NCBI GenBank assembly: GCA_942493035.1
Contig: OW818666.1
Span: 3,936,813-4,000,812, forward strand
Direction of reading: 5' to 3'
DNA from: an uncultured Spirochaetota bacterium
GTDB lineage: Bacteria; Spirochaetota; UBA4802; UBA5550
DNA: 64,000 bases
Shown here: piece after piece, positions 4,435 to 59,534 of the stretch
How the letters are laid out: every line of letters begins with the position of its first letter
How positions within the stretch are numbered: the first letter of the stretch is position 1
The notes under the pieces: generated by a model
The model's input: the letters and a program-made list of their open reading frames with translations, nothing else
What the model was told of the DNA's origin: nothing
The model's database searches: none
Program-made: the position numbers and the translations under genes

Positions 4435-6087
4435 ATGAAATTCAGTGAATTTAATCTTGATGAGAAAATATTAAAAGGTATTGAAGATGCAGGTTTTGTT
4501 AACTGTACGGAAGTGCAGGCGGAGTCTTTAAAGTATACACTTGACGGGAAAGATATCCTTGTTCAATCCCAGACAGGGACCGGGAAAACTGCCGCATTTA
4601 TGATTCCGCTTTATCACCTCCTTTTAACTAATGAAAAGATGAAAAATAAAAAAGTTCTTATTCTGGCTCCAACAAGAGAACTTGTAATACAGATAGAGAA
4701 AGAGGGGAAACTTCTTGGTGCCCATCTTGATATTAAAATTCAGAGCTTCTACGGCGGTGTCGGGTATAATCAGCAGGAAAATGCCATGAAGGAGGGAGTC
4801 GATATTTACGTAGGAACTCCCGGAAGACTAATGGATTTTGCCAGCAGCGGAAAGATCAAATTCGGAGAGTTTGGTATTCTTGTTATAGATGAAGCTGACA
4901 GAATGTTTGATATGGGATTTTTCCCGGATATAAAAAGAATGATGAAACGCATGGTTTCACCATCTGACAGAATCTCTATGCTTTTCAGTGCTACTTTAAG
5001 TTCCAAGGTAAAGAATCTTGCATGGGAATATATGAATGACCCTGTTGAAGTTACTATTTCCGGCGGACAGGTTACGGTTGAAAAAATTAAGCAGGTTCTT
5101 TATCATGTGGGAACCAATGAAAAGATAAGTCTTCTTCTTGGAATTCTTAAGACACAGAATCCTCAAAACGCGCTTGTATTCACAAATACCAAACAGGACG
5201 CAGTAAAAGTCGCCGCAAGACTTGCAGGTAACGGATACGAATGCAGCTATATTATTGGTGACCTTCCACAGAGTAAGCGGTCTAAAATTATTGAAAATAT
5301 TAAATCGGGTAAACTGAAATATCTAGTTGCAACAGATGTTGCTGCAAGAGGACTTCATATTAACGATCTCGATATTGTAATAAACTACGATATTCCCGAA
5401 GATTTTGAAAATTATGTTCACAGAATCGGGCGGACTGCAAGAGCCGGTAAAACCGGTATGGCCGTAACTTTTGCATGTGAGAAATTTGTATATGGACTTG
5501 AGGCTATAGAGTCATATATAAAAATGAAGATTCCCGTAGAGTGGGCCGGGGACGAGATGTTTGCTGAAGATATGAGTAAAGATGAATTTATCAGAAATTA
5601 TATGAGAGAATCAAAGCAGACAAGAATTGTTTCTGAACATGATGATAAAAAGACAGACAAATTCAGCAAAGATAGAAAAGGGAAAGATAGACCTGCTGCT
5701 GGAGCAAGACCTGAGAAGAAAGATTTCCGGAAAGGTCCTGATAAGAGAGAGGATAAAGATTTCAAAACCAAAAAGAATATTACTGAGACAAAACCTAAAG
5801 CTCCATCCGATAAGAAGGTTTATGATAAAAACAGTAATGATAAAAATAACCGTAAAAAAGATACTGTTACCGAAAAAGTAAATGATAGAGCATCTAAAAA
5901 TCTTACTCCTGATAAGAGAATGGATTATTATAAAGAGAAATACGGAGAGGATTTTACTGTTAAAAGAGAGATTACTGCAGATCCTTCGAAAAAAAGTAAA
6001 AAACCGCCGGTTACAGCTGCAGCAAAGACTCCAGAAAAAAGCAGTTCACTTATTAGCAGGATAAAATCTATTTTCAGAAAGAAATAA
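4435..6087 (+). CDS. DEAD-box ATP-dependent RNA helicase with lysine-rich basic C-terminal tail
   Basis: 550 aa; Q-motif/Walker A (SQTGTGKT), DEAD motif (VIDEADRM), SAT, HRIGRTAR; GGAG SD upstream of ATG. Confidence 0.9.
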   Translation: MKFSEFNLDEKILKGIEDAGFVNCTEVQAESLKYTLDGKDILVQSQTGTGKTAAFMIPLYHLLLTNEKMKNKKVLILAPTRELVIQIEKEGKLLGAHLDIKIQSFYGGVGYNQQENAMKEGVDIYVGTPGRLMDFASSGKIKFGEFGILVIDEADRMFDMGFFPDIKRMMKRMVSPSDRISMLFSATLSSKVKNLAWEYMNDPVEVTISGGQVTVEKIKQVLYHVGTNEKISLLLGILKTQNPQNALVFTNTKQDAVKVAARLAGNGYECSYIIGDLPQSKRSKIIENIKSGKLKYLVATDVAARGLHINDLDIVINYDIPEDFENYVHRIGRTARAGKTGMAVTFACEKFVYGLEAIESYIKMKIPVEWAGDEMFAEDMSKDEFIRNYMRESKQTRIVSEHDDKKTDKFSKDRKGKDRPAAGARPEKKDFRKGPDKREDKDFKTKKNITETKPKAPSDKKVYDKNSNDKNNRKKDTVTEKVNDRASKNLTPDKRMDYYKEKYGEDFTVKREITADPSKKSKKPPVTAAAKTPEKSSSLISRIKSIFRKK

Positions 6088-24174: not shown

Positions 24175-24577
24175 TTTGATCTCCTGTTATTTTTTTACTG
24201 CCCTCTGCTGAAGTATTCTGGTGAGAATTGGGATAGAAACAGAGAACTTATCTTATTAGTTCATTTCATGTATTAAAAAAATCAAGAAAAATTTGTTACG
24301 CAATTATTTCATTCAAATGAAATTTTTTTTCTAAGTGGAAATGGCACGATACCCGAATATATAAATAAGGAGAAATATGCAAAAAAAGATATATGAGGCT
24401 AGATGAGTATTATATTTTGTAATAAACGGATATTAAAGGCTATAATCGGCTATAAATAGCCTTAAACGGGCTTAATAAAAAGGTACCTTCACCCGAATCT
24501 ATAAATGTCAGGAGAACCAAACTGACGCACCAGGCAAGGATGCCGGGTTTACAACAAACGATTCATGGAGGAATCAA

Positions 24578-25423
24578 ATGATTATTAACCACAATATGTC
24601 CGCTATTAATGCAAACAGAGCCCTAAAATTTCAGAACTGGAACGTAAGCAAGAATATGGAAGCTCTCTCTTCCGGTTTGAGAATTAACAAAGCTGGCGAT
24701 GATGCATCAGGTCTTGCAGTATCAGAAAAAATGAGAACTCAGATTAACGGTTTAAGACAGGCTGAAAGAAATACTGAAGATGGTATGTCTTTTATCCAGA
24801 CAACTGAAGGATATCTTGATGAAGTATCAAGCATTATCCAGAGAGTCAGGGTTCTTGCTGTACAATCTTCAAACGGAATCTATTCTGTAGAAGACAGACA
24901 GCTTATCCAGGTTGAAGTTTCTCAGCTGGTTGATGAAGTAGATAGAATTGCATCACAGGCGGAGTTTAACAAAATGAATCTTCTTCAGGGAGATTTTGCA
25001 AGAGTAAGTGTTACAGCATCTATGTGGATACACATGGGAGCAAACATGCATCAGAGAGAAAGAATATTCATTCAGACAATGACTGCTAAAGCTCTTGGTC
25101 TGAAAAATATGACAGGTAACCCTATCACTCTTTCAACTGCTGGTGAAGCGAACAGAAACATCGGGGTTATGGACAATGCTCTTCATGTACTTTCAAAGCA
25201 GAGAGCGGATTTAGGAGCATACTACAACAGGATGGAACATGCTGCTAAAGGCTTAATGACAGCGTATGAAAACATTCAATCATCTGAAAGCCGTATTAGA
25301 GACGCAGATATGGCAGAGACTATGGTTGATTTTACTAAGAATCAGATTCTTGTGCAGAGTGGTACTGCGATGCTTGCTCAGGCGAATTCAAAGTCTCAGG
25401 GAATTCTCCAGTTACTTAGATAA
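24578..25423 (+). CDS. flaB: Flagellar filament core protein FlaB (spirochete flagellin)
   Basis: 281 aa; N-terminus [18 protein letters not shown], conserved flagellin N- and C-terminal domains. Confidence 0.95.
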
Positions 25424-25449
25424 ACAAGGTTTATTATCATTTATTCTTA

Positions 25450-25660
25450 CCCCGGCGGGCTTGGGAGAGCCGGCCGGGTTTCCCTTTTGGGAGAAAAATA
25501 GAGTTCTTTGAAAACGATATTATAGCGAGCATGAGGCCCCGCAGGGGCATAACGGAGGGGCGAAGTAAGGGCGAAAAATCTTTCGCCCTTACTTCGCCCA
25601 TACTTCTTCGCCAACACAACCCGCCCACAGGCGAGGCCGCATGGTCGCTGTAATGAAGGC
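25450..25660 (+). other. GC-rich structured intergenic element between the flaB genes, with a 19-bp perfect hairpin (25558-25599)
   Basis: GGGCGAAGTAAGGGCGAAA-AATC-TTTCGCCCTTACTTCGCCC plus smaller stems; GC content far above the local background. Confidence 0.4.
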
Positions 25661-25780
25661 GTCTGTATTCCCTATAGTAAGAGTACAAACCTGGTATCAA
25701 ATGCCTGATAAGGATGTCAGGCAGTTTCGAGTCCTGTAGGAGGGACTTTAAACATCTAATTAAACAAAGGAGTGTTTAAT

Positions 25781-26632
25781 ATGATTATCAATCATAACAT
25801 GAGTGCAATCAATGCTAATAAAGCGTTGAAGTTCAAGCAGTGGGATACAAACAAGTCAATGGAATCTCTTTCCTCTGGTCTCCGGATCAATAAGGCTGGA
25901 GATGATGCTTCAGGACTTGCTGTGTCTGAAAAGATGAGAACACAGATTCAGGGTTTAAGACAGGCTGAGAGAAATACTGAGGATGGTATGTCTTTCGTTC
26001 AGACTACTGAAGGGTATCTGAACCAGACTACTGAAATACTTCAAAGGATTAGAGTTCTTGCCGTACAATCTTCAAACGGTATCTATTCTGATCAGGATAG
26101 ACAGCTTATCCAGGTTGAAGTTTCAGCTCTTGTTGACGAAGTTGACAGGATAGCATCACAGGCTGAGTTTAATAAATTTAAACTTCTGCTGGGGGATTTC
26201 TCAAAAACCGGTGCGAAAGCCAGTATGTGGTTTCATATGGGTGCAAATATGAATCAGCGGGAGAGGGTTTATATTGGTACTATGACTGCGAACGGTTTAG
26301 GTCTTAAAGAAAAAAATGGCGCCTTTATCGCTGATCTGGCATCTGCTGACAGCGCAAACAGAACTATTGGTGTGGTCGACGATGCTCTTCACAAAATTTC
26401 TAAGCAGCGGGCGGACCTTGGCGCATATTTTAACAGACTCGACTATGCTACAAGAGGTCTAATGACTGCCTATGAAAATATACAAGCATCCGAAAGCCGG
26501 ATAAGAGACGCTGATATGGCTGAAACAATGGTTGATTTAACAAAAGATCAAGTTCTAGTGCAGAGTGGTACTGCGATGTTAGCTCAGGCAAATATGAAAA
26601 CAAGAACCATTCTTCAGCTTCTTGGCGGTTGA
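25781..26632 (+). CDS. flaB: Flagellar filament core protein FlaB, second paralog
   Basis: About 283 aa from ATG 25781 (AAAGGAG SD; track start is GTG); N-terminus [18 protein letters not shown]. Confidence 0.95.
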
Positions 26633-53451: not shown

Positions 53452-53910
53452 ATGAGGGATTTTTTTATCGGGGAGAGGATATTATTAATTGAGCGAATGA
53501 TCCTTTCCGTTGGGGTGAATGATTATTCGCCCGTACGAGGTTGAGAGAAATTTTATAAAGGGGATATTTTTAGGAGTGGGATTTTTTTATCGGGGGAGAG
53601 GGGATTTTTAATTGAGCGAATGATCCTTTCCGTTGGGGCGAATGATTATTCGCCAGTACGAGGTTGAGAGAAATTTTATAAAGGGGATATTTTTAGGAGT
53701 GGGATTTTTTTATCGGGGAGAGGGGATTTTTTAATTGAGCGAATGATCCTATCCGTTGGGGCGAATGATTATTCGCCCGTACGAGGTTGAGAGAAATTTT
53801 ATAAAGGGGATATTTTTAGGAGTGGGATTTTTTTATTGGGGAGAGGATATTTTTAATTGAGCGAATGATCCTATCCGTTGGGGCGAATGATTATTCGCCC
53901 GTACGTGATT
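53452..53910 (+). repeat. Tandem array of four ~122-bp units, each with REP hairpin GGGCGAATGATTATTCGCCC
   Basis: Near-identical units beginning AGTGGGATTTTTTTATCGGGGAGAGG...; each holds GAGCGAATGATCC plus the palindromic GGGCGAAT-GATT-ATTCGCCC followed by GTACG. Confidence 0.85.
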
Positions 53911-54013
53911 GGGAGAATAATATTTATAAAATATTTTTTATTAAGGGAATTTTTTAAAAATTTCTCTGCTGCTATCGTATTCATATGTAAGAAATATTAT
54001 TAAGGAATTTAAA

Positions 54014-54565
54014 ATGTCATATAATCCGGTTTTTCATCATAGGCGATCTATTCGTTTAAAGAGATTTGATTATTCTTCTTCGGGTGCATATTTTGTTACT
54101 TTATGTGTAAAAAATAGAACAAAAATTTTTGGCTATATTGTCGGTGGTAAAATGATTTTAAATGCTGCCGGTATAGCAGCTCAGTTATGCTGGCAGGAGA
54201 TACCTTTACATTATCCCTTTGTTTCTCTGGATGTATTTGTTATTATGCCCGATCATATTCATGGGATAATTTTGATTAAGGAATCGGATTTGAGGTGGGG
54301 AAAGGATACTGATGTCGTGGAGAATGATTATTCGCCTGTACGTGAAAATGATAATTTGTTTCATAATAAGCGGCCGCGCGGTACTTCAAAAACAATCGGA
54401 TCGGTTGTTCGCGGATATAAGATAGGTGTAACAAAATGGTTCCGTAAGCATACACTTGTCGAGTCTGTCTGGCAGCGAGATTATTATGAGAATATTATAA
54501 GAAATTATGATGATTTAAATCGAATTCGTAGGTATATTATAAATAATCCGCAGAAGTGGAGATAG
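54014..54565 (+). CDS. REP-associated tyrosine transposase (RAYT; IS200/IS605-like HUH Y1 transposase)
   Basis: 183 aa; N-terminal GAYFVTLCVKNR, HUH motif PDHIHGII, C-terminal WQRDYYENIIR...YIINNPQKW, all resembling E. coli RayT/YafM; flanked on both sides by REP copies. Confidence 0.8.
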   Translation: MSYNPVFHHRRSIRLKRFDYSSSGAYFVTLCVKNRTKIFGYIVGGKMILNAAGIAAQLCWQEIPLHYPFVSLDVFVIMPDHIHGIILIKESDLRWGKDTDVVENDYSPVRENDNLFHNKRPRGTSKTIGSVVRGYKIGVTKWFRKHTLVESVWQRDYYENIIRNYDDLNRIRRYIINNPQKWR

Positions 54566-54595
54566 ATTTGTTTTTAATTCAGGATGTGCGAATAA

Positions 54596-54675
54596 TCTTT
54601 TTTTTCGGGAGAATTATATCTTGATTTGAGAGAATGATATTATCTGTCGGGGCGAATGATTATTCGCCCGTACGG
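54596..54675 (+). repeat. REP unit downstream of the RAYT gene
   Basis: TTGATTTGAGAGAATGATATTATCTGTCGGGGCGAATGATTATTCGCCCGTACGG, same unit as the upstream array. Confidence 0.75.
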
Positions 54676-54715
54676 ATATAGATTGAATTATAAGTATTTA
54701 GTGGAGAAAATAAAA

Positions 54716-55078
54716 ATGAAAATTATTTCGCAGGTCTTAATCGGATTAATAGCATTTCAGCATCTGTATATTCTATGGATCGAGATGTTTGTATGGACTA
54801 CAGTGGGGAGGAAAGTGTTCAGAGGTTTTCCAAAAGAATTTTTTCATACAACAAAGGCTATGGCTGCCAATCAGGGTTTATACAACGGATTTCTTGCTGC
54901 AGGATTAATATGGTCGCTTCTGATATCAGATAGAATCTGGAGTTTTCAGGTTTCACTTTTTTTTCTGGCGTGTGTAGTTACAGCGGGTGTTTTCGGAGCT
55001 TTTACAGCGGATAAGAAGATATTTTTTGTTCAGGCTCTCCCTGCTTTAATTGCAATGGCTGTTTTATTTCTGGCTTAG
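54716..55078 (+). CDS. Small membrane protein, DUF1304-like
   Basis: About 120 aa from ATG 54716 (GGAGAAAA SD); the track ORF start at 54656 lies inside the REP hairpin and is rejected; 3-4 TM helices, NQGLYNGFLAAGL motif. Confidence 0.5.
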   Translation: MKIISQVLIGLIAFQHLYILWIEMFVWTTVGRKVFRGFPKEFFHTTKAMAANQGLYNGFLAAGLIWSLLISDRIWSFQVSLFFLACVVTAGVFGAFTADKKIFFVQALPALIAMAVLFLA

Positions 55079-55085
55079 ATTTATT

Positions 55086-55106
55086 GGGGCGAATGATTCA
55101 TCGCCC
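55086..55106. repeat. REP variant hairpin, terminator-like between convergent genes
   Basis: GGGGCGAATGATTCATCGCCC. Confidence 0.6.
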
Positions 55107-55112
55107 TTACTT

Positions 55113-59224: not shown

Positions 59225-59362
59225 AAAAAAGCCGCGTACGGAGGAACGCGGCATATACATTGATAATCTATAGTTATTGTACTGCCGTTTCCCTCCGCCG
59301 GTATTAACCGGATCAGGTAAAAAGGGTATAATCTCAGCACGCATTTACTGCGGCACCCCTAA
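59225..59362 (-). promoter_or_regulatory. TPP (THI-box) riboswitch with terminator expression platform
   Basis: Minus strand reads UAGGGGUGCCGCAGUAAAUGCGUGCUGAGAUUAUACCCUUUUACCUGAUCCGGUUAAUACCGGCGGAGGGAAACGG, then hairpin GCCGCGUUCCUCCGUACGCGGC plus U-run, then GGAGGAA SD and the thi4 AUG. Confidence 0.9.
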
Positions 59363-59534
59363 CGGTAAAAATTTTATCAAAGAACTGATTTATTAAAAAA
59401 TCTACCGGGCATTGATGTCAATTAATTATTATATTTTTAATCTAATAAAAATATAATAATTTAAAGCGCTGTGAATTTCTATTATAAACAAGCCAGTGTC
59501 GAAAAACCATGATTCTAAAAACTAGCTGATATTA

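Follow-up and report, generated by a model that had tools for sequence, protein, structure and literature searches.

What is the GC-rich, highly structured segment that separates two flagellin genes of an uncultured spirochaete? The segment lies at 25450-25660 of a stretch of DNA of 64,000 nucleotides, here called the window (GenBank assembly GCA_942493035.1, contig OW818666.1, positions 3,936,813 to 4,000,812 of the forward strand), in the spacer between the coding sequences of flaB1 (24578-25423, plus strand), which encodes Flagellin_N and Flagellin_C domains, and of its downstream flagellin paralog flaB2 (25781-26632, plus strand). A preliminary description, made from the letters of the window, had drawn attention to the base composition of the segment, to its position between two flaB genes, to a perfect 19-bp hairpin accompanied by smaller stems, and to hairpin arms whose GGGCGAA and TTCGCCC halves recur in a repetitive extragenic palindrome (REP) associated with a REP-associated tyrosine transposase (RAYT). 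It had proposed that the segment could be a REP-derived insertion, a strong terminator or attenuator that separates the two paralogs, or a small RNA.

All these observations were borne out. The GC fraction in 100-nt windows is 0.51-0.58 over 25450-25699 and 0.31-0.45 on either side, where the overall level is about 40%, and both neighbouring genes encode flagellins. The arms of the hairpin, GGGCGAAGTAAGGGCGAAA (25558-25576) and TTTCGCCCTTACTTCGCCC (25581-25599), are 100% complementary across a 4-nt spacer, and a search with a 19-nt arm, allowing up to 3 mismatches, finds just these two sites in the window (0 expected from 100 shuffles); by itself the hairpin is predicted to fold at -37.2 kcal/mol (z = -9.4). 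The smaller stems are found at 25451-25461/25468-25478, in a mini-palindrome CCCCGCAGGGG, and in an outer stem, 25519-25533/25640-25654. The sequence GGGCGAA occurs 14 times in the window, where 4.0 +/- 1.9 occurrences are expected. The segment is not a single element, but comprises three layers: a hairpin that follows flaB1, the base of a leader structure that belongs to flaB2, and a REP-derived apex. Taken together, they make it very probable, in our judgement, that a recently expanded REP is lodged in the apex of a conserved stem of the flaB2 leader, most likely as a passenger.

The conserved leader of flaB2

Relatives were collected by a scan of one genome per species, which provided 80 loci (numbered, like the other loci mentioned below, with the prefix L), about 60 of which retain the flaB1-flaB2 tandem. 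FlaB1 has an identical counterpart on two contigs from JGI metagenomes, L001 and L002. The nearest locus of the scan is that of a groundwater metagenome-assembled genome (MAG), Spirochaetae bacterium HGW-Spirochaetae-5 (L003), with 99% protein identity, followed by many uncultured 'Leptospirales/Spirochaetota' MAGs, with true Leptospira at about 77%. Exact-protein look-ups with FlaB2, an outer membrane protein (OMP), PurE and a solute-binding protein found no strain nearer than L001 on record.

A common scaffold is shared by 37 spacers and comprises, in this order, a hairpin at the end of flaB1, the 11-mer TCTTTGAAAAC, a long stem (P1), the motif GTATTCCC, AACCTGG, a hairpin with GGA in its loop, and the ribosome-binding site. 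The first of these, CCCGGCGGGCT / AGCCGGCCGGG with the loop UUGGGAGA, occupies 25451-25478 on the plus strand of the window; it is a terminator-like hairpin with an 11-bp stem, which includes one mismatch, and the tail UUUCCCUUUU. A hairpin is found at this position in nearly all 37 relatives, although its stem varies in sequence and many of the relatives' hairpins are devoid of a proper U-run. When the constant loop and the varying stem were compared in the window, L001-L019 and L071, the loop UUGGGAGA, which also holds a GGA, was constant from the window to L019, a range that takes in the nearer half of the relatives. Such constancy hints that the loop is being read. The 11-mer TCTTTGAAAAC (motif M1, 25505-25515, plus strand) lies between this hairpin and P1; in many lineages it comes 4-6 nt after the flaB1-end hairpin. 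It occurs once in the window and is found, exact and only at the equivalent spot, in 42 related loci; it may serve as a single-stranded processing site or form part of a terminator tail. TTGAAA within it was considered as a -35 box and rejected: a conserved -10 box is missing, and the spacing to P1 is anything between 3 and about 35 nt.

The base of the leader is the 15-bp stem P1, formed on the plus strand by the 5' arm ATTATAGCGAGCATG (25519-25533) and the 3' arm CATGGTCGCTGTAAT (25640-25654), as indicated by covariation and by the predicted fold. Its shared form is ATTRYAGCRAGCAT / ATGGTYGCWGYAAT, with a G opposite a G (25529 and 25644 in the window) in 24 of 24 aligned sequences. Further downstream on the same strand, the alignment reveals the near-invariant M2 motif GTATTCCC (25665-25672), the hairpin P3 with a covarying stem, GCCUGA-UAAGGAUG-UCAGGC (25703-25722), whose form shared among the relatives is CCUGAU-ANGGAG-AUCAGG, a second hairpin with GGA in the loop, P4, AGUCC-UGUAGGAG-GGACU (25730-25747), and the ribosome-binding region with the flaB2 start codon, AAAGGAGTGTTTAAT (25766-25783). 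P4 is less constant: in L008-L011, L015, L018 and L019 its loop is retained on a different stem, and in L012-L014, L016-L017 and L071 the GGA loop is replaced.

Two alignments were evaluated, one of 24 sequences (A2) and one of 50 sequences (A3), the latter fitted to a covariance model built from the former. RNAalifold applied to A2 recovers P1, an apical stem and the GGA hairpin. In A2, 96.3% of the cells are paired and 17 pairs exhibit double changes, a result reached by 0 of 500 shuffles, and sliding the partners by 1-3 columns lowers the pairing to 31-49%. In A3, 19 of 25 pairs exhibit compensatory double changes and 95.0% of the cells are paired, a percentage that leans high, because A3 was fitted to the model and the sequences tested had also served to derive the structure. 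Compensatory changes affect 13 of the 18 pairs of P1 in A2 and 15 of 18 in A3, while the P3 stem is 99.7% paired in the 50 sequences, with the GGA of its loop invariant; the ribosome-binding site ACAAAGGAGTGT is invariant in all sequences of A2. G-U pairs make up about 7% of the paired cells; as they would turn into A-C on the other strand, it is the sense strand that folds. The covariance model matches the window once (25504-25783, 111.6 bits, E about 3e-23) and 49 other sites in related loci; wherever the downstream gene was mapped, it is of the flaB2 type and its start codon marks the end of the match. In the true Leptospira loci searched, the model finds no match. In one relative, L021, flaB is present as a tandem of three genes, and the leader occurs a second time before the third of them (4920-5062, 84 bits).

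Over the 140 nt from the 3' arm of P1 to the ATG, identity to the window is 99.3% in L001 and L003, 97.9% in L007, 96.4% in L185 (a metagenome contig described below), 95.0% in L005 and 91.4% in L006. In the flaB coding DNA the corresponding values are 96.9% (L001), 92.1% (L003), 90.7% (L007), 91.0% (L185), 91.7% (L005) and 87.5% (L006), so that the 140 nt upstream of flaB2 are more conserved than the genes (91-99% vs 87.5-97%). An Rfam scan, which the preliminary description had recommended, identified no family at the element: positions 25300-25900, at E up to 10, gave only hairpin-type microRNA noise, and the leaders of L012, L021 and L036 were unmatched at E up to 0.1. The flaB2 leader of this uncultured Leptospirales-like lineage is thus a well-supported RNA structure for which Rfam gives no match, and as such it is of greater interest than the REP that it carries.

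RNAalifold also pairs UAUUCC of M2 with GGAGUG of the ribosome-binding site. Covariation does not support this pairing, because both partners are invariant; if formed, it could act as an anti-ribosome-binding-site element. Besides, in several clades the 3' arm of P1 has a potential alternative partner in a short segment just downstream (CAGC(G) or TGCA; the region is 25644-25664 in the window). This pairing changes in step with P1, for instance GTCGCTG-TAAAT-CAGCGTC in L008 and TGCTG-TAATA-CAGCA in L012, with a register that varies by clade, and the two folds may exclude each other. In the same arm of P1, TGGTTGCAGCAATGCA was considered as a sigma-54-like site and discarded, as the -12 GC is missing in the window's own clade.

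The REP in the apex of P1

The apical region of P1 is expanded in the window to 108 nt (25533-25640, plus strand, GC 0.62) and contains the REP-derived hairpin. The perfect hairpin, 25558-25599, was recovered both by an inverted-repeat search and by a match to the REP pattern, and it has a nested architecture: the outer arms GGGCGAA (25558-25564) and TTCGCCC (25593-25599) are followed inward by the tags GTAA (25565-25568) and TTAC (25589-25592), which in turn enclose a complete REP, the core GGGCGAAAAATCTTTCGCCC (25569-25588, plus strand), an exact fit to GGGCGAA-N(4-8)-TTCGCCC with a 4-nt loop. On the right, the hairpin is followed by the tag ATAC (GTAT on the minus strand) and by TTC-TTCGCCAACAC (together 25600-25617, read from the sequence). 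With its 20 nt the core is within the size of a REP, a GC-rich imperfect palindrome of 20-40 nt; the plain form is GGGGCGAATAATCATTCGCCC in L001.

The other members of this REP family in the window are found far away. Four of the 14 occurrences of GGGCGAA lie in the flaB element, nine at 53526-55093 and one elsewhere, and the full pattern GGGCGAA-N(4-8)-TTCGCCC is present, apart from the flaB element, only beside a RAYT-like open reading frame (ORF) at 54014-54565 (plus strand, 183 aa), ~28 kb from the flaB element. The window holds 7-8 REP copies, all but the flaB copy within 1.7 kb around this ORF and on both sides of it: four upstream (53505-53904) and two downstream (54642-54673 and 55079-55110). 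The flaB element is 88% complementary to the copy at 55087-55112. Directly 5' of the ORF, 53458-53950 is a tandem array of 4 units of ~123 nt, each with one GGGGCGAATGATTATTCGCCC-GTAC. The right arms are followed by an NTAC tag, GTAC at 53779, 53901 and 54670, TTAC at 55107 and ATAC at 25600; on the other strand these read GTAC, GTAA and GTAT, i.e. variants of GTAG, which is the most frequent tag among metagenome matches to the GGGCGAA/TTCGCCC REP. Indeed, such REPs with GTAG/CTAC tags are widespread in the metagenome loci L083-L202.

The product of the ORF scores 53.8 bits (E = 1.8e-14) against the NCBIfam model NF047646 (REP_Tyr_transpos), below its cut-off of 80, and 17.3 bits (E = 0.005) against Pfam Y1_Tnp, below its cut-off of 23. 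In a weak alignment with TnpAREP of E. coli (4er8; E = 0.21), its HUH motif PDHIHGI is matched with PEHMHCI, and the tyrosine region WQRDYYENIIRN...RYIINNP with WQPRFWEHAIRN...DYIYINP. We call it RAYT-like because, in spite of a fitting gene context, it stays below the thresholds of the profiles, and presume, on these similarities, that it is a divergent RAYT relative and the putative mobiliser of the GGGCGAA REP family. The ORF itself contains, at 54310-54341, a REP-like 32-mer, 81% identical to the REP reference and translated in frame (..VENDYSPVREN..); this insert may explain the sub-cut-off scores.

The relatives preserve a series of states of the REP at the orthologous site. The spacer of L001 and L002 is collinear with that of the window base for base, except at the hairpin, where it reads GGGGCGAA-TAATCA-TTCGCCC-ATAC, while the window reads GGGGCGAA-GTAAGGGCGAAAAATCTTTCGCCCTTAC-TTCGCCC-ATAC, a net gain of 22 nt, 11 per arm. 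L003 exhibits a plain REP at the orthologous site, with the loop reversed (TGATTA). L185, a contig found by its doubled-arm pattern (85% identical to the window over 5.6 kb and 90% over flaB1-flaB2), exhibits GGGCGAA-TGATTA-TTCGCCC-ATAC-TTCGCCC-ATAC, in which a single arm with its tag is duplicated. As the REP is shared with L001, L003 and L185, it must predate these splits at this site; judged from the same comparison, the 19-bp hairpin is of recent origin and confined to the window. The preliminary description had taken absence of the element from all related genomes, together with the lack of a transcript, as a sign of a neutral insertion; the REP is present in relatives, and it is the 22-nt expansion that is restricted to the window. 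Likewise, its reading as a REP-derived insertion can be retained for 25558-25603, where the nearest relatives have a plain REP at the orthologous site and the distant ones have none, and REP derivation probably extends a few bases to the right; it cannot be retained for the whole 200 bp, which include the native flaB1 hairpin and the base of the leader stem. What weighs against the word 'insertion' is that it relies on outgroups with short apices, while an empty-site ancestor of the REP-bearing clade has not been recovered among the sequences compared.

The apex of P1 has accepted other occupants as well. It is 13-26 nt long in most lineages, 45-47 nt in L009-L011, and 81-115 nt only in the species group of the window. 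Here, the GGGCGAA REP is found in the window, L001-L003 and L185, GCCCCCGCACC...GGTGCGGGGGC in L005 (3978-4015) and L006 (3977-4021), a 28-bp perfect palindrome in L004 (3977-4030), whose contig ends inside the palindrome, and a palindrome that includes GCTGAGCCCGTCGAAG and GTTGTCATGCTGAGCCCGTCGAAG...CTTCGACAGGCTCAGGGTGACAAC in L007 (3980-4050) and L051 (about 220-300). Four unrelated GC-rich palindromes thus occupy one apex in lineages that are about equally distant, at roughly 88-92% identity of flaB DNA. The predicted stability of the P1 domain rises from -21.3 kcal/mol in L012 to -55.2 in L001 and -79.6 in the window, while its base is unchanged. We infer that the apex tolerates, and perhaps attracts, self-folding insertions, which survive there because they lengthen P1 without opening its conserved base. 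Given this tolerance, the REP would be chiefly a passenger, even if P1 gains in stability from it. It is also possible that such elements truly prefer hairpins as targets; regular insertion within palindromes has been reported for some REP families (Di Nocera 2013, PMC3733652, section 7).

The same series bears on a different account, in which selection maintains a very stable, GC-rich apex of P1, for instance as a block to exonucleases or to fix the fold, and recruits for it any palindrome that is available. Every lineage of the window's species group has a long GC-rich palindrome of varying sequence at the apex, and in all four REP-bearing lineages the arms of the REP are intact while the adjoining apical sequence diverges. 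There is also a precedent, since REP hairpins can stabilise upstream mRNA, as between malE and malF of E. coli. However, most of the 50 loci manage with an apical hairpin of 13-26 nt and ordinary GC content, and the occupants turn over at about species-level divergence, as expected of near-neutral insertions, so that we regard such co-option as rather unlikely and prefer to see in the REP a passenger.

The proposal that the expression of flaB1 and flaB2 is separated by the 19-bp hairpin, acting as a strong intrinsic terminator or attenuator, fares worse, and we consider it improbable. The hairpin is indeed very stable, and a simple scan for terminators lists it, with 19 pairs, 11 of them G-C, and 5 T in the window that follows. 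A stop here would also matter, as no recognised promoter lies downstream: a scan for sigma-70-like promoters found none in the flaB1-flaB2 spacer, and the best sigma-28 consensus match in the spacer, 9/12, is reached by 41% of random windows. But in its tail, AUACUUCUUC, U never occurs three times in a row, and the tail passes only a permissive rule (5 T in 8 bases). Besides, the doubled hairpin is unique to this genome: the REP stem of the nearest relatives is only 7-8 bp long at this site, and most relatives have none. Because the hairpin sits within P1, whose flanking arms covary, RNA must be made through it. The conserved hairpin just after the stop codon is another one, 25451-25478, 80 nt upstream, to which the label of terminator could be transferred.

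The doubling of the REP

How the plain REP acquired its additional 22 nt can be envisaged in two ways. In the first, (a), the change would have occurred in place, by tandem duplication of one arm with its tag, as L185 shows it, and then by a fold-back template switch that copied it onto the other arm. In the second, (b), a second tagged REP, GTAA-GGGCGAAAAATCTTTCGCCC-TTAC, would have replaced the 6-nt loop of the first. Route (a) accounts for the exact 11 + 11 nt and for the perfect symmetry, while route (b) accounts jointly for the GTAA:TTAC tags and the A..T closing pair, and it is supported by the TTAC-tagged copy in the window (55107) and by a REP subtype with an AAATCT loop in other organisms (L175, L201, L120). 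Each also has something to be said against it: (a) predicts GTAT:ATAC and a T..A closing pair in place of the GTAA:TTAC and A..T of the window, and (b) demands the loss of the old 6-nt loop. Neither matches the sequence exactly, and the data do not decide between them. Two simpler schemes were rejected. A mere insertion of 22 nt into a REP of the L001 type fails, because no contiguous deletion restores L001; the two sequences have 11 nt in common at the left and 11 nt at the right, which leaves the 6-nt loop unaccounted for. A pure product of duplication and fold-back fails as well, with a mismatch at two base pairs.

One-arm duplications of this REP are frequent elsewhere. In the metagenome sample we counted 111 distinct cases, 93 with two units, 11 with three and 7 with 4-15 units, including tandem arrays of one arm plus spacer in L091, L107, L152, L159, L165, L167, L173, L182 and L199; a limited look at the REP literature found no description of such arrays. 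On the other hand, duplication of both arms is rare, with one other case in the sample, L196, which is imperfect. The segment to the right of the REP may belong to this picture, too: it is TTC-TTCGCCAACAC in the window and TTC-TTCACCCACAC in L001, and by comparison with TTCGCCC-ATAC-TTCGCCC-ATAC of L185 it may be an older, decayed unit of arm and tag. It is conceivable, if doubtful, that the tip of P1 is a preferred landing site for hairpin-recognising single-stranded DNA elements and that the REP series records RAYT activity in place. If this were true, repeated nicking at the tag and re-synthesis would add units of arm and tag, REPs would grow and nest in situ and not solely transpose, and the tandem 'half-REP' arrays in the metagenomes (2 to 15 units) would be the same footprint.

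An artefact of assembly or sequencing, such as a fold-back chimera, would also account for 22 extra nucleotides that are present in the window and absent from four related contigs, all the more so as palindromes disturb assemblies and the L004 contig stops inside one. Nevertheless, both flanks are collinear with the relatives, the added tags are GTAA/TTAC with a changed closing pair and not the GTAT/ATAC of a fold-back copy of the neighbouring sequence, and independent metagenomes commonly contain this REP type with one arm duplicated. We consider this explanation very improbable and treat the expansion as real.

Work by Nunvar in 2010 and by Ton-Hoang in 2012 is said to have described REPs with a GTAG-type tag and their RAYT (TnpA-REP, Y1/HUH) transposases. 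REP elements and RAYT transposases are also treated by Di Nocera 2013 (PMC3733652) and Messing 2012 (PMC3479197). As in those systems, a 20-nt GC-rich palindrome carries a conserved tetranucleotide at one end, is extragenic, and is clustered on both sides of a single gene for an HUH/Tyr transposase-like protein. Here, however, the tag is GTAC, GTAA or GTAT and not GTAG, the RAYT-like protein falls below the curated cut-offs, and the flaB copy occupies the apical part of a regulatory stem that is itself conserved, where doubling has made it a perfect, nested palindrome. A REPIN consists of two complete inverted REPs with a spacer of tens of nucleotides, which form a hairpin (Bertels and Rainey 2011, PMC3116915, a paper in which the word 'nested' is absent). 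The flaB element resembles it in being a long hairpin of repeated REP material, and the tandem cluster (4 x 123 nt, 53458-53950) beside the RAYT-like gene is similar to the tandem REPIN clusters that Bertels and Rainey described next to RAYT genes. We nevertheless rejected assignment to the REPIN class, as the two halves of one REP here surround a single complete REP, with a loop of 4 nt. REPs within host palindromes (PMC3733652) provide a further parallel, as the REP is at the centre of a longer, pre-existing inverted repeat. The host here differs from those in being a single-copy, covarying leader stem instead of a repeat family, and in being occupied in sister lineages by at least four unrelated palindromes.

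The 19-bp hairpin is one more copy of a known kind of element, in an unusual doubled form, and most likely a passenger. A REP in a spacer, taken alone, is ordinary and would not surprise a specialist. One orthologous site that holds four palindromic elements, one of them in four structural states, is, on the other hand, a small natural experiment on the landing places of REP-like elements and on their later changes, and together with the leader motif this natural series is modestly useful.

Proposed transcription and control of flaB2

The leader probably acts on flaB2 after transcription. In the simplest scheme for a spacer in which no sigma-70-like or sigma-28-like promoter was recognised by the scans, flaB2 would be co-transcribed with flaB1 through a leaky terminator, and the RNA may be cleaved at TCTTTGAAAAC, which would lie single-stranded between two stable hairpins. 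After the cut, P1 would remain as a protective 5' stem that caps the flaB2 message, and a CsrA-type protein, by binding the GGA loops and the ribosome-binding site, would control translation of flaB2. The arrangement agrees with what is expected of a leader bound by CsrA: GGA is present in the P3 loop UAAGGAUG (25709-25716), in the P4 loop UGUAGGAG (25735-25742) and in the ribosome-binding site AAAGGAG (25766-25772), and the GGA of the P3 loop and the ribosome-binding site are invariant in 24 of 24 aligned sequences. The P3 loop may thus be a CsrA site. Some points weigh against this scheme. The start of transcription, the read-through, the processing at TCTTTGAAAAC and the binding of CsrA are all steps that we infer; the G-G opposition and the invariant TCTTTGAAAAC and GTATTCCC are not explained by a plain protective hairpin, so that a specific partner is likely; and a tblastn search for csrA and fliW found no match in the 64 kb, which is uninformative for a genome of several megabases.

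The flaB1-flaB2 spacer as a whole is predicted to fold at -153 kcal/mol, with z = -9.7 relative to shuffles and z = -8.1 on the other strand. An independent small RNA on either strand, to which folding so much better than that of shuffled sequences might be attributed, is the least credible of the alternatives: the spacer outfolds its shuffles on both strands because it is rich in palindromes, which fold both ways by construction, Rfam provides nothing beyond generic hairpin noise, neither a sigma-70-like nor a sigma-28-like promoter site was found within or just upstream of 25500-25660 on either strand, and the conserved pairs are part of a leader that runs to the start codon of flaB2.

Flagellin leaders controlled by CsrA are known from hag of B. 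subtilis and flaB of B. burgdorferi. In Leptospira, CsrA binds GGA hairpin loops in the leaders of flaB3 and flaB4 in gel-shift assays, while flaB2 of L. biflexa rises in a csrA mutant and has a putative CsrA site, ACACAAAGGAGT, upstream (PMC8668096). The leader described here resembles these in the combination of GGA in upstream hairpin loops with GGA in the ribosome-binding site AAACAAAGGAGT, the latter being almost the same as the putative site of L. biflexa flaB2, to which ACAAAGGAGTGT is near-identical. It differs in being much longer (about 165-280 nt), in having in addition the invariant TCTTTGAAAAC, P1 with its G-G opposition and GTATTCCC, and in that the motif is missing from the true Leptospira loci searched; the role of CsrA here is putative.

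Intercistronic stem-loops are known to set differential stability of mRNA within operons, as in the REP of malEFG, in pap and in puf. The flaB spacer is similar: two co-oriented genes, whose products the cell requires in different quantities, are separated by a short AU-rich stretch of single strand with a stable hairpin on each side; it differs in that processing is here proposed by analogy only. With this reservation, the leader offers a concrete candidate mechanism by which spirochaetes could adjust the proportions of their flagellin paralogs.

Upstream of flaB1, in 24340-24577, the motif ACCCGAAT(A/C)TATAAAT is present in duplicate, near 24351 and near 24491, and a hairpin with a GGA loop, CCAGGCAAGGATGCCGGG (~24531-24548), precedes the ribosome-binding site of flaB1, while a stem of the P1 type is absent from this region. 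Elsewhere, a search of the whole window against Rfam release 15 at the gathering threshold gave a sole match, a thiamine pyrophosphate (TPP) riboswitch, RF00059, at 59273-59370 on the minus strand (73 bits, above the gathering score). The window also holds a second family of palindromic repeats, ATATATCCCCGCCGCCGAAGGCGGCGGGGATAATAGAG, with 8 copies in the 64 kb (4190, 8367, 19812, 40688, 46049, 56298, 59983 and 62945), each about 48-100 nt long and bordered by conserved AT-rich flanks; by its appearance, it looks like a miniature inverted-repeat transposable element (MITE) or a terminator module.

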